A program made the position numbers and the translations under genes. A DNA stretch of 20,000 nucleotides from an uncultured virus (IMG/VR IMGVR_UViG_3300025284_000066) (lineage: Duplodnaviria > Heunggongvirae > Uroviricota > Caudoviricetes), in the IMG/VR virus record IMGVR_UViG_3300025284_000066; one strand, 5' to 3'. This document shows positions 175 to 17,405 of the stretch, one piece after another; positions within the stretch are counted from its first letter, which is position 1, and each line of letters starts with the position of its first letter. Below the pieces are notes generated by a model. It was not told the origin of the DNA. It saw only the letters and a program-made list of their open reading frames with translations, and made no database searches.

Positions 175-2193
175 ATGCACGGCTTCAAACCCGCCACCAA
201 GCGCGCCCAGGCGCAACACCTTGCCGAGGGAGGCCTTGTGCGCGGCTTGGTGCGCAAGGTGATGGGCATTCCCGAGCCCACAGACACGGGCGCCGCGGCG
301 CCGGCGGCCACACCAGCTGCGCCGCCTCCCGCGCCAGCGCCGGCCCCCGAGAAGGCGATCACCCAGTACGCGGGCATGGGCGCGACCGAGCGTCGCATGA
401 AGGCCATGGGCCTGAAAGACGGTGGGCCGGTGCGTGGGCCGGGCACCGGCACCTCCGACAGCATCGAAACCGAGGTTCGACCGGGCAGCTACATCATGCC
501 GGCGGACTCCACCGAGCAGCTTGGCGAGGACGGCGTGGCTGCATTGGGCTTCAGCCCGGAGAAGGTGCCGGTGAACCTGAGCAACGGCGAATACCAGCTC
601 CCGCCCGAGCACGTACATGCTGTCGGCGTGGAGGCGCTCGACGCGATCAAGGACGCTACCCATGCATCGGCCCCAGGCCCGCGCGGTTTCGCGCCGAGCG
701 CGGCCGAACCGCCGGTATTCTTCGCCGACGGTGGGCTGGTTGATGAAGATCCCCGTAAGGCGCGCACCCCGCCACCCGCTGCTTCACTGGATGTCAGCGC
801 CAGCATCCCTGCGCCCTTGCCGATGCTGACGGCCTCGCTGCCGCCCAGCCCGCAGGCGCTGCAGCTGGCCGCCAACGAGAGGGCCGCTGCCGCGCCCGCA
901 CCGGCGCCCTCGTCGCAGACGAGCCCACTGGCCCAGACCCAAGGGGCCGCATTCGGCGTATTCAGGCGTGAGCCGACGGCGGGGACGCGAGGCGGCATGA
1001 TGCAGCCCTACGTTGCAACCGGCCCCGCGTCGTTCGAGCCAGCAAAGGTGCAGGAGGGCACAGGACGGCTCGATGCATTCAACGATCCGCGCTCGACGTT
1101 GTTCAAGGGCGAGGCTGATGCGGCACCTGCGCCGACCAGCCGAGGATTCGCCGGTGTGGGCGAAGGCTGGGGCAGTGGCGCGAAGCCTGTGGCAACGACC
1201 GTCGCCCCGGCAGCGCCACCCGCGGTCCGCCCGGCTGCCGCCCCTGTAGTCGCGCCGACCGCACCTGCTGTCTCGAACGATGCACCGGCGAGCTCGGCGG
1301 CACCGGCTGCGAGCCAGGTCATGCCGGGCGTGTTCAGGCAGGGCAACAGCTACGGCGACTCGCCGGCCGCCGCCGCGGCGGGCTTCGCGCCACGCTCGGC
1401 GCCGAGCGCGCAGAACATGGCTGCGGCCGACGCGCTCGAGGCGCGTGGCATCGCAGAGCGAGCCGGTGAGCGAGCTGCTGCAGCTGGAGGCTCGGCAGCC
1501 GGGTTCGCACCTGGTAACGGCCTGACGGTGATCGGAGACGACACCCACGCGGATCGTGTGCGCCGGAGCGCGTTCGGCGCGGCGAGCACGCCGTACCGAG
1601 GATCGCCAAACGGACAGCTCACAGCCAACCAGGTGCGTGTGCTGGCCGGCATGGACGAGGCAAACGGTCGAAACGCGCTCCAGCGCGACACCACCGCCGC
1701 TAACAATGCCGCTTCGCTGGAGCGCGAAGCGATCCAGCAGGCTGGCGCCTCCGGCCGGACAGCGGTGCAGGAGGCGGGCGCCAATGTTCGTGCGGGCGCT
1801 ACCAACGATGTGCAGCGTGGCGAATTGGCCCTGCGGCAGGAGGCACAGGGGTTCCAAACTCGCGGCGCCCAGCGCGTGGAGAAGCTGTACGAGCAGTACG
1901 AGAAGGCCAAGCCCGAGGAGCGGGCGGCCATCGCAGAGCAGATCCGCACGATGACGGGCAAAGAGCACCCGAGCCGCTTCACCGTGGTGCCCGGCGGGCA
2001 GGAAATCGACCCGACCACCCAGCAATCCGTCACCAGGCCGGCGCGCGTCTTCAACAACCAGACCGGCCAGTTCGTCGAACAGGGTCAGGCGCCGCGAGCC
2101 GGCCTCCCTCCGGGGATGACCCGGCAGATTGGCACTTCCAACGGGAAGCCCGTCTACGAGGATGCACAGGGCAAACGGTTCATCGGCAGCTGA
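175..2193 (+). CDS. Phage virion/ejection-type protein (672 aa), Ala/Pro-rich, with GGPVRGPGTGTSDSI...LSNGEY motif
   Basis: GAGGT SD at 164-168 supports ATG 175 rather than 28. The GG.V.GPGT.TSDSI / LSNGEY motif is familiar from phage tape-measure and internal virion proteins. Lies directly upstream of the giant virion protein. Confidence 0.7.
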   Translation: MHGFKPATKRAQAQHLAEGGLVRGLVRKVMGIPEPTDTGAAAPAATPAAPPPAPAPAPEKAITQYAGMGATERRMKAMGLKDGGPVRGPGTGTSDSIETEVRPGSYIMPADSTEQLGEDGVAALGFSPEKVPVNLSNGEYQLPPEHVHAVGVEALDAIKDATHASAPGPRGFAPSAAEPPVFFADGGLVDEDPRKARTPPPAASLDVSASIPAPLPMLTASLPPSPQALQLAANERAAAAPAPAPSSQTSPLAQTQGAAFGVFRREPTAGTRGGMMQPYVATGPASFEPAKVQEGTGRLDAFNDPRSTLFKGEADAAPAPTSRGFAGVGEGWGSGAKPVATTVAPAAPPAVRPAAAPVVAPTAPAVSNDAPASSAAPAASQVMPGVFRQGNSYGDSPAAAAAGFAPRSAPSAQNMAAADALEARGIAERAGERAAAAGGSAAGFAPGNGLTVIGDDTHADRVRRSAFGAASTPYRGSPNGQLTANQVRVLAGMDEANGRNALQRDTTAANNAASLEREAIQQAGASGRTAVQEAGANVRAGATNDVQRGELALRQEAQGFQTRGAQRVEKLYEQYEKAKPEERAAIAEQIRTMTGKEHPSRFTVVPGGQEIDPTTQQSVTRPARVFNNQTGQFVEQGQAPRAGLPPGMTRQIGTSNGKPVYEDAQGKRFIGS

Positions 2194-2262: not shown

Positions 2263-5200
2263 ATGGCTGGCGAAACTCTCAAGCCCTTCGACGGGCAACT
2301 CGATACCACACCGCACAACCTCACCCCGTTTTCGGGTGAGCTCGATCCGCCCGATGCAAAGCGCACCGTGCTCGGCACCGTAAAGGATGTCGGGGTCACG
2401 GCGCTGAAGGGCGCGGTCGGCCTTCCGCAGAGCGTCGTCGGCCTGGCTGACATCGTGACGGGCGGCCGCGCTGGCAAAGCTCTGGAGCAGGCCGGCGTCG
2501 GCTTCGAGGAGACACAGAAGTTCCTCGACGACCAATATTCCGACGCGCAGAAGGCCGCCAACCGCAAGGTGCAGGCGGCCGATGGCTTCGTCGATACGGC
2601 CAAGACCATGCTGGAGAACCCCAGCACCATCGCTACCAGCGTGGGCGAGTCGATTCCACAGATGCTCGGCGGCGCGGGCGTCGCGCGCGGCTTGCTCAAG
2701 GTGGCGCCCAAGATTGCGCCGGCCATCGCTGGCGCCATCGGTGAGGGCGTGCTGGGAGCGGGCTCGCAGGCCGAGCAGATCCGCCAAGAGACGCAGGACG
2801 GGTTGCTCACCCCGAAGCAGGCGGCTCTGTCCGCCGCGACCGGTGCCGCTACTGCTGGCTTCGGTGCACTCGGCGGACGCCTGGCGCAGCGCCTTGGCAT
2901 CGGCGATGCCGACACGATGCTGGCGCAGGGAGCCATCCACGGCGCCGGGCCCGCCTCGCAGCGTTCGCTCGCGCGCCAGGTTGGCGCTGGCATGCTGTCC
3001 GAGGGCGTGCTCGAAGAGCTGCCGCAGTCGATGTCCGAGCAGGCGCTGCAGAACCTCGCGCTGGACAAGCCCGTCGGAGAAGGTGTCGGCAAGGCCGCCG
3101 CCGCCGGGTTGCTCGCGGGCGGCGCCATGGGCGGCGGGGCCGCGCTGTTGCACGGCGCGACTGGTCAGCATGCCCCGAATCAGGCGGAGCCCGGTAGCGC
3201 GGAGCGCGTGCCCGGCGAGCAGCTCTCGCTGTTGCCGGTGGACGAAGCTCCGGCAGCCGCGGCGGCGAGCGAGCTGCCCGCCGTTGCGGGTGGCCTGGCC
3301 AGCGTGCAGCGCACCTTCGATCCGCGCGACCCGGGCAGCCGGCCGCCGCTGGACGTGATGCCCACGGCCCCCACCGATGGAGTGGAGTTCGAGGCGGCGC
3401 CGCAGGTCGCGCGCGAGTTCAGCACGGGCAATCTTTCGCTCGCTGATGAAGCACAGCCCGTGCGCCCCTCCGAAAAGATGGGGCTGGACCCTGCAGCAGG
3501 CCCGCTGTCCACTGCCGCCGCGATGGCGGTGGATGGTGGCGCGCACGACGTGATGAACGCGGCCGCTCAACTCGCCGCTCAGGCCGAAGCCGCCGACGGC
3601 AAGGGCACGAAGCCGGCAGCAGCTTCTCCGGCACCCGCCAGTGTGCCGATGGCGAACGTCAACGCCGAAACCGGCGAGATCTCCGGACAACCGCAAGACC
3701 GAGAGGCCGAACTGCGGGCACGCCTGGAGTTCGTGCGCCAACAGGCCGCGTCGAACGGCTGGGACCAGCGCCTGATCGCCGAGCGCGACAGCGCGCGAGC
3801 TGAACTGGCCGCACTTGCGCCCGCTGCCGCAGCGCCGACCAGCGTGCAGGAGGGCATCGCTCAAGCGCGCGCCCGCCGCGCAGCGCCCGAATCCGCACCG
3901 CAACCCAAAGGAGAAGCCCTTGGCACTCAAGCCGACCAAGCCCAGCAAGCAGGCACGCAACAAGCGCCGGCAGGAACAGAAGCGCCAGCAGCTGAGCCAA
4001 TCGCGTCCGCCACAACGCTGACGCCCGCGCCGGCAGCACCGGCTGTACCGAACGCGAAGCGCGAGAAGGCGGTGCGCCGCGTGGAAGAAGGGCGCGCATG
4101 GTTCTTGTCCCGCGACAAGGCGCAGTCCTTCGTGGACACGTCGGGCCTCGCGGACACGCACGAAGTGGTGCCGGACAACCGCCGTTTCGTTGTGCAGGCC
4201 AAGGCCGAGCAGCCGGCACAGGATGCGCAGCCGCAAACCGCTGCGCCGGCCGATCAGCTGGCGGACCTGCGCCGCCGACGCGCCGAGGCCGAGCCGGGCA
4301 CGCCCCTGCGCCGCGACATCGATAACGACATCGCGGCGTTGGAGCGCGAACAGCAGCAAGCAGTTCGCCGGCCTGAAGCGGTAGCGCCGGTGGATGCTGC
4401 GGCGAACGAAGCCGCCACCAGCCCGCAGAACGACCTGCCCGAGCCTAGTCAGGCCCAGAAAGAGGCGGGCAACTACAAGATGGGCCACCTGTCCGGTGAC
4501 GAGGTACAGGGCCTGCGCATCAGCGTGGAGAACCCGCACGGCAGCACGCGCAGCGGCACCTCGCCGGACGGGACCGAGTGGAGCAACACGATGGCCGCGC
4601 ACTACGGCTACGTGAAGGGCTCCGAGGCAGCAGACGGCGACCACGTGGATGTGTTCGTCGGGCCGGCAGCCGCGACAGCACCGACGGTCTACGTGGTGGA
4701 CCAGATCAACGCGGATGGCTCCTACGACGAGGCCAAGGCGCTGATGGGGTTCAACAGCGAAGCCGAGGCCTTGGCCGCCTACAAGGGGAGTTACAACAAG
4801 GGCTGGAAGGTCGGTCCGGTCACCGCGATGTCGATGGACGACTTCAAGGCTGCGCTCGCGGACGGGCGCCTGAAGAAGCCGCTCTCGTCCACATTGAGCG
4901 AGTCCGTGCGCGAATCCTCGCCCGCTCCAGCAGCGCAGCGCGCTACGACGATGGAGACGGCGCGCACCGCGCTGGCTTCGTACTTCGATTGGTATCTCAG
5001 CCGCAATCCGAAGGCATCCCGTCCGATGGGCGGGATCTATCAGGGCAACAGCTTCACGCTCGACTCCGGCGGCGCGCCATTCACGAAGGCGGGCCAGGTG
5101 CAGGTGAACGGCTTTAAGGAACTGACCTTCAACTACACGGCCGCGTGGAAAGAGGCTCAGTCGCGCGCCGCCGCAGCAGCGCCGGCCGCCGCCCCGATTG

Positions 5201-8200
5201 CTGCTACCAACGCAGGAGACGAAAATGGACGAAATGCAGGAACTGTACCGACCGAACGACTACCCGCCGCCGATCAAGGAAGCGATGCGCGCGATGCCGG
5301 CGCTGGCGACCGAGATCGCCAACCGGTGGATGCTCGGGTGGCCGAAGCGGGTGAAGGCGCTGATCGAGGCGAGCGAGTTCCTGCGGGCGCTGAAGGAGCA
5401 GGAGGAGGCCGAGCGGAGGGCGTACAGCGACTCCGGGAATCGGCACCTGGCGAGGCACGAGATAGCCGAGTTGTACGGCCTGAGCGACAGTCCGCCGACG
5501 CTGTAGCCGACCCGGCGACCGCCGAGGCCTCGCCAAAGCCCGAGCTCGACCAGTCGGGCGACCACACGCTGGATGCCGACGATATCGGCAAGGGTGGGCT
5601 CACCAAGAAGTACCGCGACAACATCGCTGCCATCCGCATCCTGAAGGCGCTCGCCAGCGAGAGCCGCAAGGCCACCCCGGAGGAGCGCAAGCAGATCGCG
5701 CGCTACGTCGGCTGGGGTGCGCTGAAGGGCGTGTTCGACCCGCAGAACAAGCAGTGGGCCAAGGAATTCGCCGAGCTGCGCGAGTTGTTGACCGATGCCG
5801 AGTACAAGGCCGCTCGCGCGTCGATGCTGAACGCGCACTACACGGCGCCGGTGGTGGTCAACGGCATCTACGATGCGCTCGAGCGCATGGGGTTCACCGC
5901 TGGCCGCGTTCTCGAACCGGCGGTGGGAACCGGCAACTTCTTCGGCCTGATGCCCGCGAGCATGCGCAAGCGCTCGCAGCTGCATGGCGTGGAGCTGGAC
6001 CCGCTCACCAGCCAGATCGCGGCGGCGCTGTATCCGAGCGCCAAGGTGGCGCGGGCCACCGCGTTCCAGGACTTCCAGGCCCCGTCCGAGTACTTCGACC
6101 TGGCGGTGGGCAATCCGCCATTCGGCTCGGAGCCCATCGTCGATGACGACCGCTCGCCGTATTCGGGTTTCTCGATCCACAACTACTTCTTCGCCAAGAG
6201 CATCGACAAGCTGCGCCCCGGTGGCCTGCTGACTATGGTGGTGTCGCACAACTTCCTTGACGCCAAGAACGAAGCAGCACGGCAGTGGATCGCCGATCGG
6301 GCCAACCTGGTGGCAGCGGTCCGGCTGCCGCGAACCGCGTTCAAGGAGAACGCCGGCACCGACGTGGTGACCGACATCGTGGTGCTCCAGAAGAAAACGG
6401 AATCCGAGCGCGCGAACGGATTGGGCGATGCGGCGTGGGTGAAGGTCGGCCAGCAGACCCTCACCAACCCGAAGACCGGCGAGGCGACGCAGCACAACGT
6501 CAGCAGCTACTTCCTGACCAATCCCGATGCGGTGCTGGGCACGCCGGTGGCGGCCGGAGCGATGTATCGCCTGGGCGAGTACACGGTGGAGCCCTCTGGC
6601 GATCTGGCGCAACAGCTGAAGGCATGGGCCACCGCGCTCCCGGAAGACCTCTATCAGCCTGTGGAGCGCACGCACGAGCAGGAAGCCGCCGACGTGGTGG
6701 TGCCTGACGGTGTGAAGGTCGGTTCGTTCTACGTGGACGACAGCGGCCGCGTGCAGATGCGCGGCCCGGATTCGCTGGGCAACCGAACGGCAGAGCCGTG
6801 GACGCCGCCCAACGTGAAGGCTGCCGAGCGCATGAAGGGGATGGTGGGCCTGCGCGACGCGCTGCGAGCACAGATGCGCCTGGAGCGCTCCCCGGACTCG
6901 ACCGACGGACAGATCGAGCAGCACCGCCGCGAGTTGAATCGCCTCTATGACGGGTTCCAGAGCAAGTACGGCTACCTGAACGACCCGACCAACCGCCGCA
7001 TCTTCCTGGACGACACCGAGTCGGCCCTGGTGCTGGCGCTGGAGTTCGACTACGACCGTGGCGTGAGCAAGGCGGTGGCCGAGCGCGAGGACATCGAACC
7101 GCGTGCGCCCAAGGCGATCAAGGCCGACATCTTCGCGCGGCGCGTGATGTTCCCGCCCGCGGACAACATCAAGGTGAGCAACGCCAAGGACGCGCTGCTG
7201 GCCAGCCTGAACTACAAGGGCCGGCTGGATGCCGCCTACATGGCGACGCTGTACGACAAGTCTCCGGCCCAGATCGTGTCGGAGCTTGGTGACGTGGTGT
7301 ATGCCGACCCGGTGAATGGGCTCGTGATGGCCGACGAATATCTGTCGGGCGACGTGAAGACGAAGCTGGCCGAAGCAGAAGCCGCCGCGCGTGACGACCC
7401 GGCGCTGCGCCGCAACGTGGAGGCCCTGCGCAAGGTCATTCCGGCCGACAAGCGGCCGAGCGAGATCCACGCGGCCATGGGCGCGGCTTTCATTCCACCG
7501 GAGCTGTTCCAGCAGTTCGCCAAGGAAGTGACCGGCGCCGAAGCGCGCGTCACCTACCTGCGCGCTACCGGCCAATGGCTGGTGGACTACACGTCCCAGC
7601 CCAACCCGGCGCTCAACACGGCGAAGTGGGGCATTGGCAGGATGACCGCGCAGAACATCTTCATGCGCACGATGGCCGGCCAGGGCGTGGTGGTCACGGA
7701 CACCATCCGCGACCCGAACGGTGGTACCCGCACCGTGGTGCTGGAGAAGGAAACGGAGGCCGCGCGCGAGAAGCAGGCCGCGATGAAGGCCGAATGGCAG
7801 CGCTGGCTGTGGAGCGACCCTGAGCGCGCCGACCGTGTGGCGGGCATCTACAACGACAAGATGAACCGCATCGTGGTGCGGCGCTTCGATGGCTCGCACA
7901 TGACCTTCCCGGGCATGTCGCCCGCGATGGAGTTGCTGCCGCACCAGAAAGATGCCGTATGGCGCGCGCTTCAGCAGCGCCAGATCCTGCTGGATCACGT
8001 CGTCGGTGCTGGCAAGACCTTCGAGGTTGTGGCTGCCATCATGGAAATGCGCCGGCTGGGCATCGCGCGAAAGCCAATCGTCACGGTGCCCAACCACCTC
8101 ACCCTGCAGTGGCGCAGCGAGTTTTCGCGCCTGTACCCGGCGGCCAACGTGCTGGCGGCCACGCCCGATGACTTCACCAAGGGCAACCGGGAGAAGTTCT

Positions 8201-11200
8201 TCTCCAAGATCGTCACCGGCGACTGGGATGCCGTCATCATCGGCCACTCCAGCCTGAAGAGGATCGCGCTGCCGGCCGAAACGGAAAAGGCCGTGCTGGA
8301 AGAGCAGATTACCGAGCTGGCCGACAGCATCGGCGAAATGAAGCGCGCCCGCGGCGACCGGAATGTCGTGCGCGACATGGAGAGCATCAAGGCCCGCCTG
8401 GAAGCCCGCATGAAGCAGCGCGTGCAAGCCCTTGGCGAGCGCGACAAGGTGGTGACCTTCGACGAGCTCGGCGTCGATGCTTTCGCCATCGACGAGCTGC
8501 ACGAGTTCAAGAACCTCTTCTACAACTCCACCATGGAGCGCGTGCCCGGCATGGGCAACCCCGGCGGCTCGGACAAGGCGTTCGACCTGTTCGTGAAGGC
8601 GCAGTACCTCTTCGACGCGCTGGGGGACAAGGCGCCGCTGATGGGCGCGACCGGCACGCCGGTTTCCAACAGCCTGGTGGAAATGTTCAATATGCAGCGG
8701 TTCCTGCAGTACCCGACGCTGAAGGCGCAGGGCCTGCACGTCTTCGACGCCTGGGCCAAGCAGTTCGGCAGCGTGGAATCGCTGTACGAGGTGTCGCCGT
8801 CTGGGACCGGCTACCGCCAGGCCTCGCGCTTCGCCAAGTTCAAGAACCTGCCGGCGCTGATGGGCATGTACCAGACCTTCGCCGACACGGTGACGCTGGA
8901 CGATCTGAAGGCGCAAGAGGAAGCCCGAGGCCGCACATTCCCGGTGCCGCAGGTGGCCGGCGGCCGCCCGGTGAACGTGGTGGCGAAGCGCTCGCCGGAG
9001 GTGGCCAACTTCATGGGCGTGCCGCAACTGGACATCCAGGGCGGGCGAGTGCAGTTCGGGTTCAACCCGGCCGCTGGGGAGCGCGCAGTTATCGAGAAGG
9101 CCGAGGACGGCAACAGCTGGCGCGCCGAAACCCGCGTGCCGCAGCCCGACGAGAAGGAGATTCGGCAGCTGATCGGCTCGGCCAAGACCGAAGAGGATGC
9201 CAAGCTGCTGGTGGTCGAAGCCGCCCTGTCGCCCAAGATCAAGGTGGACCCGAAGTCGATCCTCGGCCAGTTCGCCGACCTGAAGCGGCTGACGAAGGAA
9301 ACGAAGGGGAAGGTCAACGCGCTGTCGCTGACCGGCCAAGCCAACAAGGCGGGCTTGGACTTCCGCCTGATCGACCCGTCGGCGCCCGACTTCGAGGGCT
9401 CGAAGATCAATCTCGCCGTCGACCGCATGCTGGGCACCTACCAGAAGTGGACCAGCGACCGAGGAACGCAACTGGTCTTCTGCGACCTGTCCGTGCCCCT
9501 CTCGGCACGCAGCGGCTTCGGCAGCAAGGAGCGGCGCGTGTACGTGCGAGACGACGGCGCCCTGGTGCACAAGAAGGGCACCATGCACACGGTTCGCGGC
9601 CACGAAGACTTGCCGTTCTTCGTGGTGAAGGAGGGCGGCAAGGACGCCAAGGCCTTCGCCATCTACGACGCCGCCACGGGCTTGCGCGTGCACGCCGGCC
9701 TGCCGGCCAAGGGCATTGCGACCGACTGGGCGGCGCAGGCCCTGAACGACGACGGCCGCCGCCAGCGCTGGATCGACGCCCGCGACCGCATCGGCGACCT
9801 CCAGCAGGACGAGATCGACGACTACAACAACGCCAACGAGATCGACACCGAGGAAACCGAATCGATCTCGCTGGCCGACATCGCAGGCATGTCGGGAGCC
9901 ACCGCGTTCTCGGTGTACGACGACATCAAGGGCAAGTTGATGGCGCGCGGCGTGCCGGAGCGCGAAATCGCCTTCATCCACGACTACAACACGCCCGCAG
10001 CGAAGGACAAGCTGTTCAAGGCGGTGAATCGGGGCGACATCCGCTTCCTGCTGGGCTCCACGCCGAAGATGGGCGCCGGCACCAACGTGCAGGAGCGCCT
10101 GGTCGGGCTGCATCACATTGACGCGCCCTGGCGCCCGAGCGACCTGGAGCAACGCGAGGGCCGCATCATCCGCCGCGGCAATGCGCTCTATGCTCGTGAC
10201 CCGGATGGTTTCGAGGTGGAAATCTACCGCTACGCCACCGAGCAGACCTACGACACCCGCCGGTGGCAGATCCTGGAGCACAAGGCTCGCGGCATCGAGC
10301 AGCTGCGTAAGTACGACGGCACCCTCAACGAGATCGACGACATCGAGGGGGAGGCCGCCAACGCGGCCGACATGAAGGCCGCCGCCTCGGGCGACCCGCT
10401 CATCCTGGAAGAAACACGGCTCCGCAACGATGTGCGCCGCCTCGAATCACTGCAAGCCTCCCACGCGGACGAAACGGCTTCGATGGTGCGCCAGGCGCGC
10501 GACCAACAACGCTTCGCGCAAGACTGGGGCCCGAAGGAGCTGGAAACGTTCCGAGGTCTGCAGGCTGCCGCCGAGGCCAACCCGGTGCCCAAGGATGGCT
10601 TCGCTGGCCTGACCGTTGCCGGGAAGACGATCACCGACCGCGAAGCGGCTATCAAGGCCGTCAAGCGGGGCATCGATCGTGTGTTCGTAAGCGGCGGGCA
10701 GGAGGAGTTCCAGTACCGAGGCGTGACCTTCATGCTGGAAGGCACGCCCGACCACGTGGAGCTCAATTCGCCCACCGGTGGGCTGGATTCCTATCGGCCG
10801 GCCAGGGACGTGCTGCCGTCGGCGGCGGGCATCCTGACCCGCTTCGGCAACTACATCAACCGTCTCCCGGCGCACATCGTCGACCTCGATGCGAAGATCA
10901 CGGAAGCGAAGCAGGCGGCAGTGCAATTGCGCGAGCAGGCCGGCAAGCCATTCGCCCAGGCGAAGGAGCTGGAGTCAGCACGCGAGGCACATCGCCGGGT
11001 GCAGCGCCGGCTCGTGGCGAAGGGGCCGGACATCCCGCTGAACCAGCGACCCGCCCTGCAGAAGGCCATGGCCGAGCAGCGCCAGCAGCTCATCGAGCAG
11101 GGGTTCGGGGATACGCTCGAGGAGTTCGGCGGTGGCGCCGACGATGCGCAGTTCCGCCGGGACGGGACCGAAATGCTGTCGCCCGAGGCAGCCAGAGCCA

Positions 11201-14200
11201 TGCGGGCGCTCCTGCCCAACTACTCGCCGCAGGCTCGCGCACAGGCTGTAGCGTCTGTGACCAAGACGGTGGAGGCGATTCGCGCCGGTTGGGGCAACGG
11301 GCCCGAGGTGATCGTGGCGTTCGACATGGGCGACCCGGTTGTGCCCGGGGCGGCCCGCCGCGCGGACCTGAAGCAGCGCAGCGGCGGCGCACGGGGCGCT
11401 CCCGAGGGCTTCTACTACCGTGGCAAGGCCTACTTGATGGCCTCGCGGCTGCCCACGGCCAACGATGCGGCGCGCGTGCTCTTTCACGAAGTACTCGGCC
11501 ACCACGGGCTGCGCGGCCAGTTCGGCAAGGGGCTGGATGACGTGCTGAACCAGATCGGCACCATGCGCCGCGCCGACGTGGACGCGAAGATCAATGAATA
11601 CGGGCTGCGCGGCGTCAACAAGCTCGACCGGCGCGCCGCGGCGGAGGAAGTCCTGGCCGAAATGGCGCAGACCCATCCCGAACTGCACTTCGTGCGTCGC
11701 GCCATCGCCGCGATCCGCACCTGGCTGCGCGAGCACGTGCCGGGCTTCAGCAACCTGCGGATGACGGACGACGAGATCGTGCGCAACTTCATCCTGCCGG
11801 CTCGGCGCTTCGTTGAGCAGGGCGGCCCGGACGGCGGGCCCAGCGACGGGCTGCGCTTCAGCCGTGGTGACGCGGGCCCCGCCTCGACCAACAGCCTCGA
11901 TGCCCCCATCGCCGCCGACGACGACGGTGTAGCGAACTTCTGGCACTGGTACAGTGGGCAGGATGGAAGCCTCAAAGACACCCGAAGCGGCACGCAAGGA
12001 TCTGGAGGAACTGCTGGCGGAGCTGCCGCCGGTGGGCCCGGCCGAGATGGCGGCGCATCTGGGCGACTCGGACCCGTTGATGCGCAAGGCCGCCCGCTCG
12101 TATTTTTCCACGGCACGCGAGACGACTTCACCGCGTTCGATACCGAGCACCCAAACCGAAAAGACGTAGGCTGGCTTGGCCGCGGCGTCTACGGTGCGAG
12201 CGACCCGGCGGACGCCAACTACTATGCCGGCGCAAAGCGCGGCGGCGGTGGGCAGCGCGTCATGCCGCTGTACTTCGCGGTCACGAACCCCTACGTTGCC
12301 ACGCCGGAAATCAAGGCCCGTCTGAAGCGGGCCACGCAGGCGCAGGTCGATCGCTTCACGGCAAACCTGCGCGCGATGGGGCACGACGGCGTGACGCTCA
12401 CTGCCGAAGATGGCTCGGTGGAGATCGTCGCGTTCGATCCCAGCCAGGTGAAATCGGCCATCGGCAACAGTGGGGCATTCGACGCTGGCACCTCGGACAT
12501 CCGGTTCAGCCGATCCACGGTGCAGGACTTCGCCAAGAAGGCCACCGCCGAGCTCAATAAGACTTTCAATGCGCCCGGCAAGTTGTCCTGGTGGCACAAG
12601 ACCGTGGGCACCATGTACAACCTCGCGGAGCGTTCGCCAGCCTTCAAGGCGGTGTTCGACTCAGCGCAAGGGTTCGTCGACGACGTGAGCTTCTACGCCA
12701 ACGACGCGGCCGAACTGGCGCCCAAGCTGCTGCCGAAGCTGGAGACGTGGCGCGACATCAAGAAAGCGCCGGTGGCCGCGGCCGACAACGCCGCAGTGGC
12801 GAAGCCAGTCTTCGAAGGCACGCTGACCTGGGCGCGAGACGAACAGGGCAAGCCGGTACCGGTGCAGTCGCTCATCGACGCGGCGGCCGAGCTGTCGGCC
12901 GACCAGAAGGCGCAGCGCCTGCTGCGAAACGGGCAGATCGACGAGCGCATGCTGAAGGCATGGCAGGGCATGCCCCTGGAGTCCTACGAGAAGGCTATCA
13001 ATACGCGCTTCGAGTCGCGCATGCTGCAGCCGGGCGTCGTCTGGACCGATGCGGAGCTGCGCTCCATGTTCAAGCTCTCGGACGATCAGATCGCGCTCTA
13101 CCACGAGTTCCGCGAGACGACCGACCGGAGCCTGGACACGATGGCGCGCGCCGACATGCTGCGTTTCGTGGGCGACGATGCCAAGGGCATGCGTGGCATG
13201 GTGATGGATGCGCCGGATGCCCAGGCGGCGGCCGTGCTGCTGCGCGATCACCTGGTGCAGCTGGCCAACGAGCAGCCTGACCGCGCGACCCAGATCCTGA
13301 ATACCGCCAACGGCATCATCGACCGGGCCGACAAGGTGCGCGACCTGCAGGCCCGTGGGTATGCGCCGCTGTCACGCTTCGGCCGCTACTCGGTCGACGT
13401 GGTGGACGCTGCCGGCGAGCGGCAGTACTTCGGCCTGTTCGAGACGGCACGCGAGGCCAACAATATGGCCGCCCAGATGCGGGAGGAGTTCGGCGATGCC
13501 ACCGTCACCCAGGGCACACTGTCGGAGGAGGCCTTCAAGCTCTTCGCTGGCGTGACGCCCGAGACGCTGGAACTCTTCGGCAATGCCCTCGGCCTCGATT
13601 CGACCGGTGACAGCGCGCAGGACCAGGCTTTCCAGGAATACCTGCGGCTGACGAAGACCAACCGCAGCGCAATGCGGCGGCTGATCCATCGCAAGGGCAT
13701 CGCCGGTTTCAGCGAAGACGTGGGCCGCGTGCTGGCTTCCTTCATCTACTCGAACGCGCGCCAGACGGCCGCCGGCCTGCACATGGGCGACCTCGGCGAG
13801 GCGGTGCAGGCCATCCCGAAGGAACAGGGCGAGCTGAAAGATGCCGCCGTGCGCCTGGCCGACTATGTGAAGAACCCGCAGGAGGAGGCGCAGGCGGTGC
13901 GCGGGCTGCTGTTCGCGCAGTACCTGGGTGGCTCGGTGGCGTCGGCGTTCGTGAACATGACCCAGCCTATCGCGGTGACGATGCCGTGGCTGAGCCAGTA
14001 CGGCGGCGCGCGCGCGGCGGCCGCGCAGATCGGCCGGGCCGCGAAGAACATCGCCACGCGCGGCTTCGAATACGAACCGGATCTCGCTGCGGCGCTCAAG
14101 CGCGCCGAGGACGAGGGGACCGTGAGCCCGCAGGAGGTGCACCAGCTGATGGCGCAGGCGCGCGGCGCGAGCTCGCTGCGCTCCGGCGATGGCACGCGCG

Positions 14201-15390
14201 GCGGCGAGCTGCGCGCGATGGGCCAGAACGCGCTGTCGCGCTTGTCGCTGGCATGGGGGAAGCTCTTCGGCGCCGCCGAGCAGGTGAATCGCCGCATCAC
14301 CTTCATCGCGGCCTACCGAACGGCGAAGGCGCAGGGCATCGAAGACCCGGCAGGATTTGCTCGCAAGGCGATCACCGAGACGCAGTTCCTCTACTCGAAG
14401 GCGAACAAGATGGAGTGGGGCAGGGGGGCGATCGGCGGCACGCTGATGACCTTCAAGACCTACTCGGTGGCTTACCTCGAGCTGCTGCACCGCATGTACA
14501 CGCAGGGTGGGCCAGAGGGCAAGCGCGCCGCGCTGCTGGCGCTGGGCATGCTGATGCTGATGGGCGGCGCCGGCGGGCTGCCGTTCGAGGAAGACCTGGA
14601 GGATGCGGTCGACGCGCTGGCGCAGATGCTCGGCTACAACTTCTCGACGAAGAAGGCCCGCCAGGAATTTCTGGAGAGCCTGCTGCCGAAGCCGATCGCG
14701 CAGTTCATCGACAAGGGCGTGAGCGGTCTGCCCGGCGCGCCGCTGGATGTGTCGGGCCGCCTCGGCATGGGCAACCTGATTCCGGGCACGGGCCTGCTGC
14801 TGGAGAAGACCAGCCACGCGCGCGACCTGCTGGAGATCGCGGGCCCGGCCGGCGACTTCGCCAGCCGCATCCTCTCCGGCGGCCGCAGCATGCTCACTGG
14901 CGACGTGGGCGCCGGGCTGCTGGAAATGTCGCCCGCAGCGGTGCGCAACGCGGCCAAGGGCGTGGACATGGCCGCGACCGGCATGTATCGGGATGCCAAG
15001 GGCTACAAGGTGCTGGACACGAACACGCTGGAGGCGGCCCTCAAGGGCATCGGCTTCCAGCCGAACAGCGTGGCCACCATCCAGGAGGCGAACGGCATCA
15101 ACCAGGGCGCGAAGGCGTTCTACAACCTGCGTGCGCAGGAGATCCGGGCGCTGTGGGCACAGGGCGTGTTCGAGGGCGACCAGCAGAAGGTGCAGGAAGC
15201 CCGCGACCAGGTTGCCGCGTGGAACCGGAAGAACCCTGAGCAGCCGATGCTCGTACGCATCCCCGACGTGATGCGCCGGGTGCGGGAAATGCGCAAGTCC
15301 AAAGATGAGCGGATCGCTGATACCGCGCCGCGGGCGATGCGTGCTCAGATGCGCGAAGAGGCGGCTCGGGCACGTGCCGACACCATGTAG
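2263..15390 (+). CDS. Giant polyvalent virion-injected protein (4375 aa): Gly/Ala-rich N-terminus, InPase, DarB-like N6-adenine methyltransferase plus SNF2 helicase, metallopeptidase, ART-PolyVal-like ADP-ribosyltransferase, PLxRFG C-terminal region
   Basis: InPase motifs GNYKMGH/ENPHGSTRSG/YGY/DGDHVDVF (~4400-4875). Methyltransferase LEPAVGTGNF and NPPF (6112-6123). Helicase GAGKT (8005-8019), DELH (8491-8502), ATGTP, QREGRIIRRGN. HEVLGH (11485-11502). FHGT (HGT 12109-12117)...EIVAFDPSQVKS. PLSRFG (13366-13383). Strong GC3 bias in this frame. Confidence 0.92.
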   Translation: MAGETLKPFDGQLDTTPHNLTPFSGELDPPDAKRTVLGTVKDVGVTALKGAVGLPQSVVGLADIVTGGRAGKALEQAGVGFEETQKFLDDQYSDAQKAANRKVQAADGFVDTAKTMLENPSTIATSVGESIPQMLGGAGVARGLLKVAPKIAPAIAGAIGEGVLGAGSQAEQIRQETQDGLLTPKQAALSAATGAATAGFGALGGRLAQRLGIGDADTMLAQGAIHGAGPASQRSLARQVGAGMLSEGVLEELPQSMSEQALQNLALDKPVGEGVGKAAAAGLLAGGAMGGGAALLHGATGQHAPNQAEPGSAERVPGEQLSLLPVDEAPAAAAASELPAVAGGLASVQRTFDPRDPGSRPPLDVMPTAPTDGVEFEAAPQVAREFSTGNLSLADEAQPVRPSEKMGLDPAAGPLSTAAAMAVDGGAHDVMNAAAQLAAQAEAADGKGTKPAAASPAPASVPMANVNAETGEISGQPQDREAELRARLEFVRQQAASNGWDQRLIAERDSARAELAALAPAAAAPTSVQEGIAQARARRAAPESAPQPKGEALGTQADQAQQAGTQQAPAGTEAPAAEPIASATTLTPAPAAPAVPNAKREKAVRRVEEGRAWFLSRDKAQSFVDTSGLADTHEVVPDNRRFVVQAKAEQPAQDAQPQTAAPADQLADLRRRRAEAEPGTPLRRDIDNDIAALEREQQQAVRRPEAVAPVDAAANEAATSPQNDLPEPSQAQKEAGNYKMGHLSGDEVQGLRISVENPHGSTRSGTSPDGTEWSNTMAAHYGYVKGSEAADGDHVDVFVGPAAATAPTVYVVDQINADGSYDEAKALMGFNSEAEALAAYKGSYNKGWKVGPVTAMSMDDFKAALADGRLKKPLSSTLSESVRESSPAPAAQRATTMETARTALASYFDWYLSRNPKASRPMGGIYQGNSFTLDSGGAPFTKAGQVQVNGFKELTFNYTAAWKEAQSRAAAAAPAAAPIAATNAGDENGRNAGTVPTERLPAADQGSDARDAGAGDRDRQPVDARVAEAGEGADRGERVPAGAEGAGGGRAEGVQRLRESAPGEARDSRVVRPERQSADAVADPATAEASPKPELDQSGDHTLDADDIGKGGLTKKYRDNIAAIRILKALASESRKATPEERKQIARYVGWGALKGVFDPQNKQWAKEFAELRELLTDAEYKAARASMLNAHYTAPVVVNGIYDALERMGFTAGRVLEPAVGTGNFFGLMPASMRKRSQLHGVELDPLTSQIAAALYPSAKVARATAFQDFQAPSEYFDLAVGNPPFGSEPIVDDDRSPYSGFSIHNYFFAKSIDKLRPGGLLTMVVSHNFLDAKNEAARQWIADRANLVAAVRLPRTAFKENAGTDVVTDIVVLQKKTESERANGLGDAAWVKVGQQTLTNPKTGEATQHNVSSYFLTNPDAVLGTPVAAGAMYRLGEYTVEPSGDLAQQLKAWATALPEDLYQPVERTHEQEAADVVVPDGVKVGSFYVDDSGRVQMRGPDSLGNRTAEPWTPPNVKAAERMKGMVGLRDALRAQMRLERSPDSTDGQIEQHRRELNRLYDGFQSKYGYLNDPTNRRIFLDDTESALVLALEFDYDRGVSKAVAEREDIEPRAPKAIKADIFARRVMFPPADNIKVSNAKDALLASLNYKGRLDAAYMATLYDKSPAQIVSELGDVVYADPVNGLVMADEYLSGDVKTKLAEAEAAARDDPALRRNVEALRKVIPADKRPSEIHAAMGAAFIPPELFQQFAKEVTGAEARVTYLRATGQWLVDYTSQPNPALNTAKWGIGRMTAQNIFMRTMAGQGVVVTDTIRDPNGGTRTVVLEKETEAAREKQAAMKAEWQRWLWSDPERADRVAGIYNDKMNRIVVRRFDGSHMTFPGMSPAMELLPHQKDAVWRALQQRQILLDHVVGAGKTFEVVAAIMEMRRLGIARKPIVTVPNHLTLQWRSEFSRLYPAANVLAATPDDFTKGNREKFFSKIVTGDWDAVIIGHSSLKRIALPAETEKAVLEEQITELADSIGEMKRARGDRNVVRDMESIKARLEARMKQRVQALGERDKVVTFDELGVDAFAIDELHEFKNLFYNSTMERVPGMGNPGGSDKAFDLFVKAQYLFDALGDKAPLMGATGTPVSNSLVEMFNMQRFLQYPTLKAQGLHVFDAWAKQFGSVESLYEVSPSGTGYRQASRFAKFKNLPALMGMYQTFADTVTLDDLKAQEEARGRTFPVPQVAGGRPVNVVAKRSPEVANFMGVPQLDIQGGRVQFGFNPAAGERAVIEKAEDGNSWRAETRVPQPDEKEIRQLIGSAKTEEDAKLLVVEAALSPKIKVDPKSILGQFADLKRLTKETKGKVNALSLTGQANKAGLDFRLIDPSAPDFEGSKINLAVDRMLGTYQKWTSDRGTQLVFCDLSVPLSARSGFGSKERRVYVRDDGALVHKKGTMHTVRGHEDLPFFVVKEGGKDAKAFAIYDAATGLRVHAGLPAKGIATDWAAQALNDDGRRQRWIDARDRIGDLQQDEIDDYNNANEIDTEETESISLADIAGMSGATAFSVYDDIKGKLMARGVPEREIAFIHDYNTPAAKDKLFKAVNRGDIRFLLGSTPKMGAGTNVQERLVGLHHIDAPWRPSDLEQREGRIIRRGNALYARDPDGFEVEIYRYATEQTYDTRRWQILEHKARGIEQLRKYDGTLNEIDDIEGEAANAADMKAAASGDPLILEETRLRNDVRRLESLQASHADETASMVRQARDQQRFAQDWGPKELETFRGLQAAAEANPVPKDGFAGLTVAGKTITDREAAIKAVKRGIDRVFVSGGQEEFQYRGVTFMLEGTPDHVELNSPTGGLDSYRPARDVLPSAAGILTRFGNYINRLPAHIVDLDAKITEAKQAAVQLREQAGKPFAQAKELESAREAHRRVQRRLVAKGPDIPLNQRPALQKAMAEQRQQLIEQGFGDTLEEFGGGADDAQFRRDGTEMLSPEAARAMRALLPNYSPQARAQAVASVTKTVEAIRAGWGNGPEVIVAFDMGDPVVPGAARRADLKQRSGGARGAPEGFYYRGKAYLMASRLPTANDAARVLFHEVLGHHGLRGQFGKGLDDVLNQIGTMRRADVDAKINEYGLRGVNKLDRRAAAEEVLAEMAQTHPELHFVRRAIAAIRTWLREHVPGFSNLRMTDDEIVRNFILPARRFVEQGGPDGGPSDGLRFSRGDAGPASTNSLDAPIAADDDGVANFWHWYSGQDGSLKDTRSGTQGSGGTAGGAAAGGPGRDGGASGRLGPVDAQGRPLVFFHGTRDDFTAFDTEHPNRKDVGWLGRGVYGASDPADANYYAGAKRGGGGQRVMPLYFAVTNPYVATPEIKARLKRATQAQVDRFTANLRAMGHDGVTLTAEDGSVEIVAFDPSQVKSAIGNSGAFDAGTSDIRFSRSTVQDFAKKATAELNKTFNAPGKLSWWHKTVGTMYNLAERSPAFKAVFDSAQGFVDDVSFYANDAAELAPKLLPKLETWRDIKKAPVAAADNAAVAKPVFEGTLTWARDEQGKPVPVQSLIDAAAELSADQKAQRLLRNGQIDERMLKAWQGMPLESYEKAINTRFESRMLQPGVVWTDAELRSMFKLSDDQIALYHEFRETTDRSLDTMARADMLRFVGDDAKGMRGMVMDAPDAQAAAVLLRDHLVQLANEQPDRATQILNTANGIIDRADKVRDLQARGYAPLSRFGRYSVDVVDAAGERQYFGLFETAREANNMAAQMREEFGDATVTQGTLSEEAFKLFAGVTPETLELFGNALGLDSTGDSAQDQAFQEYLRLTKTNRSAMRRLIHRKGIAGFSEDVGRVLASFIYSNARQTAAGLHMGDLGEAVQAIPKEQGELKDAAVRLADYVKNPQEEAQAVRGLLFAQYLGGSVASAFVNMTQPIAVTMPWLSQYGGARAAAAQIGRAAKNIATRGFEYEPDLAAALKRAEDEGTVSPQEVHQLMAQARGASSLRSGDGTRGGELRAMGQNALSRLSLAWGKLFGAAEQVNRRITFIAAYRTAKAQGIEDPAGFARKAITETQFLYSKANKMEWGRGAIGGTLMTFKTYSVAYLELLHRMYTQGGPEGKRAALLALGMLMLMGGAGGLPFEEDLEDAVDALAQMLGYNFSTKKARQEFLESLLPKPIAQFIDKGVSGLPGAPLDVSGRLGMGNLIPGTGLLLEKTSHARDLLEIAGPAGDFASRILSGGRSMLTGDVGAGLLEMSPAAVRNAAKGVDMAATGMYRDAKGYKVLDTNTLEAALKGIGFQPNSVATIQEANGINQGAKAFYNLRAQEIRALWAQGVFEGDQQKVQEARDQVAAWNRKNPEQPMLVRIPDVMRRVREMRKSKDERIADTAPRAMRAQMREEAARARADTM
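3920..4021 (+). CDS. Candidate overprinted basic peptide (33 aa, MALKPTKPSKQARNKRRQEQKRQQLSQSRPPQR) in the +1 frame of the giant gene
   Basis: AGGAG at 3909-3913, 6 nt before a TTG start. By hand count 26 of 33 codons end in G/C, while the host frame here uses many A-ending codons (CAA, GGA, GCA, ACA). Confidence 0.5.
   Translation: MALKPTKPSKQARNKRRQEQKRQQLSQSRPPQR
5225..5506 (+). CDS. Overprinted 93-aa helical protein of unknown function in the +1 frame of the giant gene
   Basis: AGGAG at 5214-5218, 6 nt before ATG. By hand count 86 of 93 codons end in G/C. The sequence looks globular (EIANRWMLGWPKRVKALI). The host frame here is a G/R/A/D-rich linker with atypical codons (CGA, GGA, CTA, GAT). 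Confidence 0.8.
   Translation: MDEMQELYRPNDYPPPIKEAMRAMPALATEIANRWMLGWPKRVKALIEASEFLRALKEQEEAERRAYSDSGNRHLARHEIAELYGLSDSPPTL
11963..12169 (+). CDS. Candidate overprinted 68-aa protein (MEASKTPEAARKDLEELLAELPPVGPAEMAAHLGDSDPLMRKAARSYF...) in the +1 frame, overlapping the start of the ART domain
   Basis: Extended -10 TGgTACAGT (11947-11955), then 7 nt, then ATG (leaderless geometry). Codon bias favours the +1 frame for roughly the first 48 codons. The host frame there is a Gly-rich low-complexity insert. Confidence 0.55.
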   Translation: MEASKTPEAARKDLEELLAELPPVGPAEMAAHLGDSDPLMRKAARSYFSTARETTSPRSIPSTQTEKT

Positions 15391-16877: not shown

Positions 16878-17405
16878 ATGATGCTGCCCGACCTCAAGAC
16901 GCCTCTGCTGTGGGCACTCAGCCTTGCACTCGTCGCCGCGCTGGCCACGGCCGGCATCGAGCGCACGCGCGCAGCTGGTGCTCGCGCCGATGCTGCTGCA
17001 GCTCGCAAGGATCTCGCCGACTACCGTGCCTCACAGGCCGAATCCGGCCGGCTGGCCGAGCGCGCCGCGCGCACCCAAGAACAGACCTGGCGCGCTCGCG
17101 TCGATGGAGTGATTCAAGATGGTCAAAAACAGATTGCCCGTGCTCGGGATGATGCTGGCCGTGCTGGTGCTGCTGAACGCCGGCTGCGCGAACAGCTTGC
17201 CGCCTATCGCGCCGCCGTCCGCGCAGCCACCACAGCGGCCGGCCCTGCCGGCGGAAGCCCGCCAGCCGAAGCCGCCCTCGATCTGCTTGCCGACCTGCTC
17301 AGCGGGAGTGGAGCGGCTCTTCGGGAGCTGGGGCAATTCGCTGACGCCTCCTACAGTGCAGGAACCATCTGCGAGCGGCATGCCGACGCGGTGAGTACGC
17401 CGTAG
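16878..17405 (+). CDS. Rz: Rz-like inner-membrane spanin (175 aa)
   Basis: GGAGG SD, N-terminal TM helix, Ala/Arg-rich coiled coil, C-terminal Cys, directly after the endolysin. Confidence 0.85.
   Translation: MMLPDLKTPLLWALSLALVAALATAGIERTRAAGARADAAAARKDLADYRASQAESGRLAERAARTQEQTWRARVDGVIQDGQKQIARARDDAGRAGAAERRLREQLAAYRAAVRAATTAAGPAGGSPPAEAALDLLADLLSGSGAALRELGQFADASYSAGTICERHADAVSTP
17119..17394 (+). CDS. Rz1: Rz1-like outer-membrane lipoprotein spanin, fully embedded in Rz (+1 frame)
   Basis: GGAG at 17106-17109. Signal peptide with lipobox LLNAG|C. Pro-rich mature region with CxxxC. Embedded architecture as in lambda Rz/Rz1. Confidence 0.85.
   Translation: MVKNRLPVLGMMLAVLVLLNAGCANSLPPIAPPSAQPPQRPALPAEARQPKPPSICLPTCSAGVERLFGSWGNSLTPPTVQEPSASGMPTR

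Follow-up and report, generated by a model that had tools for sequence, protein, structure and literature searches.

In lambdoid phages, the whole of Rz1 is contained within Rz, in the +1 frame, and overprinted genes are likewise found in phiX174, a small virus. ADP-ribosyltransferase (ART) toxins can have a cognate immunity protein or antitoxin, as in the pairs DarT-DarG and Tre1-Tri1. Here we describe a locus with likenesses to each of these systems. It lies on a 20,000-nt stretch of DNA from an uncultured virus (IMG/VR record IMGVR_UViG_3300025284_000066), which is referred to as a whole as the window. A giant open reading frame (ORF) for a polyvalent protein, whose frame we call frame 0, includes an ART-PolyVal domain (Table 1). 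The N-terminal motif of this domain is split by a Gly-rich insert, and a 68-aa ORF is nested over this insert in the +1 frame, at nucleotides 11963-12169. Judging from the comparisons of sequence given below, this nested ORF is very probably a real gene.

The original prediction held that the two halves of the ART motif, ANFWHWYSG and PVDAQGRPLVFFHGT, are kept apart by a Gly-rich insert of about 40 residues, and that in domains of this type the two normally lie close to each other. Both points were borne out. Position 11932, at the start of the first half, is in frame with the giant ORF, the insert counts 38 residues, 14 of them Gly, and PVDAQGRPLVFFHGT begins directly after it at residue 3271. 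The ART-PolyVal match has an E-value of 8.9e-25 and 88.5 bits against a gathering cut-off of 31.2, and the window domain holds every invariant column of a 67-sequence alignment, including H13 and Y40. The usual form among giant homologues and 179 related loci reads F..W[FY]GDSKVVD..G.P.VVYHGT; in insert-less relatives the FxxW[FY] motif runs straight into ..G.P.VVYHGT. The distance from W[FY] to xxHGT was 14 residues in 39 of 40 unique insert-less loci and 17 in the other one. In the window it is 50, corresponding to 36-38 extra residues. A subset of loci carries low-complexity inserts rich in G, R, D and A, about 29-86 residues long, exactly at this spot, and another subset has a different junction, in which frame-0 GFLT..W.. 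is again followed by low-complexity sequence. Loci in which an HGT site was not detected were left out (8 of the 104 loci L016-L119 and 7 of the 75 loci L120-L194) and near-duplicates were collapsed, which resulted in 94 unique ART-PolyVal loci. The insert is absent from 46 of them. Residues 3200-3406 were also modelled with AlphaFold2 (AF2) from nine sequences. The model was poor overall (mean predicted local distance difference test score, pLDDT, of 56.5) with a folded ART core, and the insert had a pLDDT below 50 and no secondary structure. Because of this, the insert looks in the model like a disordered loop that is tolerated in frame 0. Its many Gly residues seem to result from reading the codons of an E/A/L-rich +1 peptide with an offset of one base.

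Whether the +1 frame is conserved in homologous ART domains that bear the insert had been set beforehand as a check on the original prediction. We found a +1 ORF at the same place in 33 of 33 insert-bearing ART modules from diverse phages and prophages. In a first set, an ORF of 42-92 aa lies over the insert in all 18 loci. In 15 of these the ATG is located 13-34 nt after the F codon and the ORF has 54-92 aa; in L104 the ATG follows the F codon by 64 nt and stands behind AGGAGG, and the remaining loci use a later ATG (L101) or a GTG (L117). A further 15 nested loci came from metagenomes and from the second junction type.

We considered the possibility that there is no functional gene, and that the ORF is a chance open frame in GC-rich DNA whose frame signal is a relic of captured DNA. 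Long stop-to-stop stretches in +1 do often occur by chance in insert-less loci (78-200 codons, for example), the start in the window stands without a Shine-Dalgarno (SD) site, and the peptide matches no known family. Nevertheless, when 40 insert-less loci were used as a control, a +1 ATG was present near the motif in 17, and an ORF of at least 40 aa followed in only 6. Between the nested start and the ART core, the 33 loci together have 1 stop in frame 0 and 2 in +1, both of the latter natural ORF ends, against 91 in +2; the three antisense frames have 19, 33 and 33 over the same stretch. With codon usage trained on the flanks of each locus, +1 was the best frame in 13 of the 18 inserts and +2 in none, and in the control frame 0 was best in 4055 of 4061 windows. 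In a blind test on the 90 nt before the ART core, +1 was best in 18 of 27 nested loci as against 1 of 56 others. L093 is the sole locus without a nested label in which these 90 nt favour +1 over frame 0. We also counted a motif ending in LP, which was defined only after the data had been seen. Of 48 loci, 21 have it in +1, 2 in frame 0 and none in +2; for 46 insert-less loci the respective numbers are 1, 0 and 0. The near absence of stops in +1 and the blind codon test both speak against a chance frame, conserved ATG and SD sites (see below) would be left unexplained by it, and a relic cannot account for substitutions that arose after divergence and are synonymous in +1.

Such substitutions were found in the closest relatives of the window. 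The ATG and the stop (TAG at 12167-12169) are shared, with the frame open between them, by 10 close relatives; upstream, the +1 frame has a TAG stop at 11930-11932 and a GTG at 11954-11956. The G+C content by frame-0 codon position is.69/.48/.85 over the whole giant ORF and.79/.79/.47 in the insert, which is the normal pattern displaced by one base. The codon log-likelihood of the insert is -3.63 in +1 versus -4.58 in frame 0, and in a codon scan of the whole giant ORF frame 0 was not the best frame in four places only, among which the insert was the strongest. A copy of the locus is present on the chromosome of Variovorax paradoxus NBRC 15149 (89% protein identity over a 207-aa ART-region query). 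Between this prophage copy (L014) and the window, codon changes in the insert comprise 10 synonymous and 3 non-synonymous ones when read in +1, and 1 and 12, respectively, when read in frame 0. All flanks follow frame 0 (77 synonymous and 22 non-synonymous changes downstream, for example). The seven unique sequences of the clade display 18 variants in the insert, 13 synonymous and 5 non-synonymous in +1 as against 4 and 14 in frame 0, and 12 of the 18 fall on frame-0 position 1; the ratio in the flanks is 61/14 in frame 0. In the subgroup with the STPYSD motif, it is also the third positions of +1 that vary most (0.86, versus 0.56 and 0.54). The frame signal in the insert is much stronger than chance would give. 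Comparison of the sequences shows +1 as the selected frame within the insert, where frame 0 is merely kept open as a low-complexity tether. We thus regard a chance frame without function as improbable.

An ORF of 540 aa aligned with the codons of the giant gene runs along the opposite strand (10975-12597, minus strand). One may ask whether the selected frame is in fact antisense, with a gene inside this ORF whose wobble positions coincide with those of +1. In the window clade this frame scores 12 synonymous to 6 non-synonymous variants, nearly as good as the 13 to 5 of +1. On the other hand, stops interrupt it inside the insert in 15 of the 33 loci (19 stops in total), substitutions outside the insert follow frame 0, and the conserved starts and motifs are on the plus strand. 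The ORF is the usual shadow frame of a GC-rich gene, its coding is unsupported, and an antisense gene is hardly credible.

The tail of the nested ORF runs over the conserved ART core. This overlap contains 6 variants in 97 nt (6.2 per 100 nt, as against 24-29 per 100 nt in the flanks), and 5 of the 6 are synonymous in frame 0. Synonymous variation is suppressed here about 4-fold, and such low variation is the mark that a double constraint would be expected to leave. A signal in +1 between two flanks that code in frame 0 is also what recoding would produce, with a shift by +1 ahead of the insert and a return by -1 behind it, or with the nested frame as the end of a truncated isoform, and the window overlap does contain a T-run, TATTTTTCC. 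Recoding, however, would not demand an open frame 0, and yet this frame has 1 stop in the 33 loci and runs open through all the other inserts. In addition, an ATG or GTG with an SD site marks the +1 start in most lineages, and the nested ORFs end at different places in different loci, two of them inside the insert. The T-run stems from FF codons, is confined to the lineages that have them and is missing where the motif is VFYHGT; inspection of the frame junctions revealed no conserved slippery site. We consider recoding to be very improbable.

The nested peptides share a core of roughly A-K-[TS]-x-E-E-[ILM]-x-x-[LV]-[LVIM]-x-x-[LI]-P, often preceded by an F-[ND]-x-x-x-W helix and often followed by P..T.EE...STPYSD..W or LTPEQ.AMLDEHGD. 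The proline of the core is invariant in 20 aligned peptides. In a profile-profile comparison, the window group matched the other groups with an E-value of 9.8e-5 and a probability of 58%, and homology across groups is likely on this basis. In a quick tree of ART domains, those bearing a nested ORF cluster together (4 changes versus a mean of 20.6 in shuffled data, with 0 of 500 shuffles as low), which is compatible with what may be a single origin. The original prediction had described the window peptide as acidic, and this held up, with 9 D/E versus 3 K/R in residues 1-40.

Some loci depart from the common arrangement. In L126, a 1152-nt metagenome contig, the ART core shares its frame with the N-terminal portion of the nested peptide (..EEEVRMSTPYSDVATWRR), following a short tandem duplication; we treated this frame switch as a mutation (a frameshifted copy) or an assembly error. 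L173, L114, L100 and L189 have frame-0 stops just upstream of or in the junction motif. Both the nested ORF and the ART core are intact in these loci, which may represent stand-alone ART genes of shorter length, or else copies in decay in which the nested ORF is retained. In L170, L176, L177 and L180, which have the other junction type, frame 0 reads ..L..LPMDEASRMARAKEMGFD.. before the ART core. This LP helix loosely recalls the nested LP..TPE..M.DE.GD; it may be an in-frame equivalent of the nested peptide, and is probably a coincidence.

We searched for relatives of the nested product in protein databases. A scan of 1.84 billion representative proteins returned only the nested ORF itself, present as a called protein with exactly the same 68 aa (P0103). 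A 26-member profile run against proteins of similar length in 5.8 billion clusters gave one further match, P0108, a 74-aa protein from a 1059-nt contig with 64% identity to the L103 ORF, and this is probably another nested ORF. A profile search of proteins of 133-2000 aa revealed no in-frame copy, which is weak evidence, and nothing usable came from the ESM Atlas when it was queried with the L103 ORF. Pfam, PHROGs and NCBIfam searches with 15 nested ORFs gave nothing at or near curated cut-offs. The HEAT-like motif that had been proposed for the window peptide did not survive these searches: no Pfam family fits the 68/71-aa ORF, and the residues in question, DPLMRKAA, overlie the conserved frame-0 stretch GPVDAQGRP. 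It is because of this overlap that DPLMRKAAR recurs in L026 and L114. With phmmer, one HEAT-repeat protein was obtained at an E-value of 8.2e-4 amid noise from repeat proteins. The matches P0104-P0107 are repeat proteins with many weak stretches and were judged to be noise, and BLASTP of the nested ORF against the top one, P0104, gave no alignment. The HEAT likeness results from the ART frame that the peptide overlies.

Concerning expression, the original prediction noted that the codons for W-Y-S form an extended -10-like element, TGGTACAGT, 7 nt before the ATG at 11963, and this is how the sequence reads. The element matches TATAAT at four of six positions, with T1, A2 and T6 present. In the 20-kb window, TGnTAnnnT with at least four of six matches to TATAAT occurs twice on the plus strand and not at all on the minus strand. 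TGnTACAGT-N7-ATG is kept in six lineages without an SD site (the window, L095, L025, L026, L125 and L173), and it includes the rare Ser codon AGT (5 of the 209 Ser codons of the giant ORF). As the element, its spacing and the rare codon are conserved, the idea of an extended -10 gains indirect support, and from the sequence an internal promoter of this kind is plausible for this lineage only. The predicted transcript start would be at or beside the ATG, and the mRNA would be leaderless. The conserved T of TGGTACAGT could equally serve the GTG at 11954 instead.

The other lineages were examined for SD sites. Of 33 nested starts, 16 rank among the best 10% of all positions in their pairing with the anti-SD sequence, and 21 among the best 25%. 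In most lineages an SD-like site is spelled by the frame-0 codons just before the start, for example by G-D/E in the form GGA GAx, by W-E in the form TGG GAG G, or by Arg in the form AGG, which yields the GGAGGT present in L027 and L099. Translation in L028, L030, L100 and L189 probably begins at a second ATG, which stands behind GGAGA. In frame 0, the codon over the nested ATG specifies D in the window, L025, L026 and L125, but N in L173 (NAT followed by G). The protein-only relatives P0015-P0019 have D, N or Y at this position, residues that would fit NAT plus G. Since the residue varies in this manner, selection seems to act on the ATG rather than on the residue.

The ORF at 11963-12169 is not alone. 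Another of the four places flagged by the codon scan corresponds to a second nested +1 gene (Table 1), which sits in a low-complexity frame-0 linker at residues ~988-1081, before the methylase. Its ATG at 5225 lies 7 nt behind AGGAG, and G+C by frame-0 position is.93/.64/.44. The peptide (core EIANRWMLGWPKRV) is found with 37-99% identity in 29 viral contigs, the giant frame is open across the gene in all 29, and this gene is better conserved than the ORF at 11963-12169. No Pfam, PHROG or NCBIfam family fits it, and ESM Atlas contains look-alike clusters of 'hypothetical protein' with 85-94 aa. The presence of this gene shows that small genes nested in linkers of the giant gene are a habit and not a one-off. 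It makes the ORF at 11963-12169 stronger as a gene, but nesting itself becomes a weaker sign of an ART antidote. The same phage also provides a positive example of the +1 architecture in an Rz-like gene with an Rz1-like ORF inside it, by sequence a classical embedded spanin pair. A third stretch favouring +1 was observed at 3853-4047 (plus strand), with an ORF of 68 aa at 3815-4021 that starts with TTG. We do not claim this as a gene, as both frames are of low complexity (A/P/Q-rich versus K/R/Q/P-rich), the +1 peptide is basic, and the signal is probably an effect of composition.

We next turn to function. The nested ORF is always inside the N-terminal motif of the ART module itself, in polyvalent proteins of differing architecture. 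Because of this strict linkage an ART-directed role comes to mind, and we give the nested product about an even chance of being an ART-directed partner. The original prediction had looked to a structure prediction of the complex for support. With an ART alignment of 67 rows and a nested-protein alignment of 20 rows, the ART domain and the nested protein scored 0.36, as against 0.00 for the best of three controls. The three runs agreed in at least 89% of contacts, with a partner pLDDT of at least 63. In calibration, 116 of 157 solved complexes came up to the score mark, as did 2 of 215 mismatched pairs; passes at or below 0.60 came from 18 of the 157 solved complexes and from both of the mismatches that passed, and as our own alignments were used here the calibration holds only roughly. 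What stood, then, is a score above all three controls; a firm call of binding did not, as the score is weak and in a range that is more often wrong than right unless the pairing is likely beforehand. The prediction modestly raises the odds that the nested product binds the ART domain.

In the explanation that we regard as the best, and as a whole evenly balanced between right and wrong, a gene has been overprinted in +1 on a disordered loop splitting the N-terminal motif of the ART-PolyVal domain in a virion-type polyvalent protein, and its product would act on the domain that embeds it. By comparison of the loci, the nested gene travels with the ART module through many divergent phages and prophages, at the same place, in the same frame and with a conserved start. 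It would be translated independently, from the ATG at 11963 in the window, in most lineages via an SD site built from frame-0 codons. The window lineage has no such site and may rely instead on the TGnTACAGT element, from which a short or leaderless transcript would arise; this would also permit expression in the lysogen. The product would be a small, acidic, helical protein with the core ..[DE][ILM]..[LV][LVIM]..[LI]P, which would most likely bind the ART domain and hold it inactive in the manner of an immunity protein, either in the cell that makes the giant protein or in the lysogen. Immunity-like inhibition would be the most economical mechanism, with a non-inhibitory partner or an unrelated protein parked in the loop about equally likely; the assignment of the product as an inhibitor of ART is tentative.

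A number of observations weigh against this explanation. The AF2 model of the 68-aa peptide, with three helices at 7-20, 26-33 and 38-52, is of low confidence (mean pLDDT 64.5). With a jackknife hidden Markov model, the window ORF ranked first of 381 six-frame pieces, but the E-value of 0.43 is not significant. The nested peptides are poorly conserved beyond a motif of ~12 aa, the nested loci are not phylogenetically independent, and the profile and family searches brought up no free-standing or annotated homologue. With respect to expression, a two-hexamer sigma-70 promoter scan of 11000-13000 found no site and no -35 element, and anti-SD pairing at the window start is in the 35th percentile, which is not a good SD. 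No RNA run was listed as containing the locus, and two runs presumed to be RNA share only 5-8% of its sequence words. As for inhibition, ART-PolyVal would seem to need no such partner in general, because about half of the unique loci are without the insert; the second nested gene is in another linker, far from ART; and the complex score is in the range described above.

These last points also favour an alternative in which the nested gene is real and its product has nothing to do with ART inhibition, being a folding or packaging helper, or an unrelated protein that saves space in a permissive linker. The better conserved gene at 5225-5506 occupies just such a linker, beside the methylase region, in 29 of 29 loci, about half of the ART-PolyVal modules have no nested ORF, and the binding prediction is weak. 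What speaks against it is that the nested ORF is always at the same spot in the ART motif, in varied architectures, and co-clusters with the ART tree; it is with the ART module that the ORF is linked, not with the gene. A complex score higher than that of all three controls points in the same direction. We take this alternative to be credible and well short of an even chance.

The preferred explanation, of a product acting on ART, can be extended to a broader one, in which effectors carry their own regulators in the +1 frame of their linkers. An embedded immunity gene would be co-translated from the late mRNA and keep the ART silent in the producing cell. In this lineage, an extended -10 promoter belonging to the gene would also give a leaderless mRNA in the lysogen, where the product would neutralise ART injected by superinfecting relatives, and the gene at 5225-5506 would be a further case of the same built-in antidote design. 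Taken as a whole, with the ART immunity gene, the lysogen promoter and 5225-5506 all included, this extension is rather unlikely.

The coordinates of the features are summarized in Table 1. The window is a piece of the late region of a phage or prophage, and downstream of the giant ORF are an endolysin, an Rz-like spanin and an HNH endonuclease. As a related copy sits in the V. paradoxus NBRC 15149 chromosome, the element is temperate. The nearest record, G001, is 100% identical to the window and was not counted as an independent sequence, and the phage collection returned no match when searched by blastn with 11700-12500.

Table 1. Positions of the giant ORF, its domains, the split ART motif and the nested frames in the window
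Feature	Nucleotides	Residues of giant ORF	Strand	Remarks
Giant polyvalent-protein ORF	2263-15390		+	4375 aa; host gene, frame 0
InPase domain (inorganic pyrophosphatase)		730-865		Pfam
Eco57I-type methyltransferase (MTase) domain		1262-1352		Pfam
SNF2/ResIII domain		1889-2016		Pfam
Helicase_C domain		2566-2639		Pfam
ANFWHWYSG, first half of ART N-terminal motif (FxxW[FY]...)	11932-11958	3224-3232	+	Frame 0
Gly-rich insert	11959-12072	3233-3270	+	38 aa, frame 0
ART-PolyVal domain	12079-12480	3273-3406	+	Pfam PF18760
Extended -10-like element TGGTACAGT	11947-11955		+	Last T 7 nt before ATG 11963; overlaps GTG 11954-11956
Nested +1 ORF, MEASKTPEAARKDLEELLAELPPVGPAEMAAHLGDSDPLMRKAARSYFSTARETTSPRSIPSTQTEKT	11963-12169		+	68 aa plus TAG
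Nested-ORF tail over conserved ART core (GPVDAQGRPLVFFHGTRDDF...)	12073-12169		+	Frame 0 dominates
Second nested +1 gene, MDEMQELYRPNDYPP...EIANRWMLGWPKRV...	5225-5506		+	93 aa; codon scan flagged 5158-5487
Rz-like spanin gene	16878-17405		+	phrog_312
Rz1-like ORF, +1 within Rz	17119-17394		+	Signal peptide, LNAGC lipobox

Gene callers skip ORFs nested in another gene, and a family of this kind is therefore invisible in annotation; in protein databases the present one is almost absent. If the nested protein controls the ART domain, this would explain how an ADP-ribosyltransferase that is potentially harmful can be produced and packaged by a phage. It would also supply a ready natural inhibitor for an uncharacterised ART clade and a compact design of a toxin with an internal antidote. 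Whatever its function, the nested ORF is a clean case of dual coding in large dsDNA phages. In view of this ORF and the second nested gene, linkers of low complexity in giant polyvalent proteins would deserve re-reading in other frames. If the broader extension were true, built-in antidote genes would be a general, so far unannotated layer of phage genomes.

In the polyvalent-protein, ART-PolyVal and overlapping-gene literature, as far as its available portions extend, we found no published description of the nested family. The available portions of the paper that defines polyvalent proteins (PMC5512222) make no mention of a frameshift, an overlap, a linker or low complexity, and use 'nested' only for a hairpin fold. 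In the excerpts at hand, the literature naming 'ART-PolyVal' concerns a eukaryotic family, and that on overlapping or embedded genes in the context of bacteriophages and antitoxins consists of general works, none of whose excerpts deals with polyvalent proteins.

How does the locus compare with known systems? With canonical ART-PolyVal modules (PF18760; Iyer et al. 2017) it shares an intact domain, the FxxW[FY] motif and a polyvalent protein with an MTase, an SNF2 helicase and an InPase. It differs in the 50 residues, instead of 14, that separate W[FY] from xxHGT, the extra part of which codes in +1. Overlapping genes have been reviewed (PMC8227390 and PMC6195259, seen here in excerpts). Like overprinted viral genes, those at this locus have two coding frames on one strand, with one product that is compositionally odd and disordered; here, however, it is the segment of the host gene that is disordered and the nested frame that has normal codon usage, and the genome is that of a large dsDNA phage and not one limited in size. 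As in Rz/Rz1, a small gene is fully inside a larger phage gene in +1, with its own start, and both products would be made, as far as can be told from the sequence. Rz and Rz1 belong to annotated families and form the two subunits of a single complex, whereas here the host frame is a disordered loop in an enzyme module of a 4375-aa effector, the nested product belongs to no known family, and its partner is putative. In comparison with ART toxin-immunity pairs, the likeness is a small gene for an acidic, helical protein that is strictly linked to an ART, with a weak predicted binding. The window ORF resembles no known immunity family and many ART-PolyVal modules go without it, and, unlike the genes of those pairs, it is encoded inside the ART gene in another frame, not beside it.

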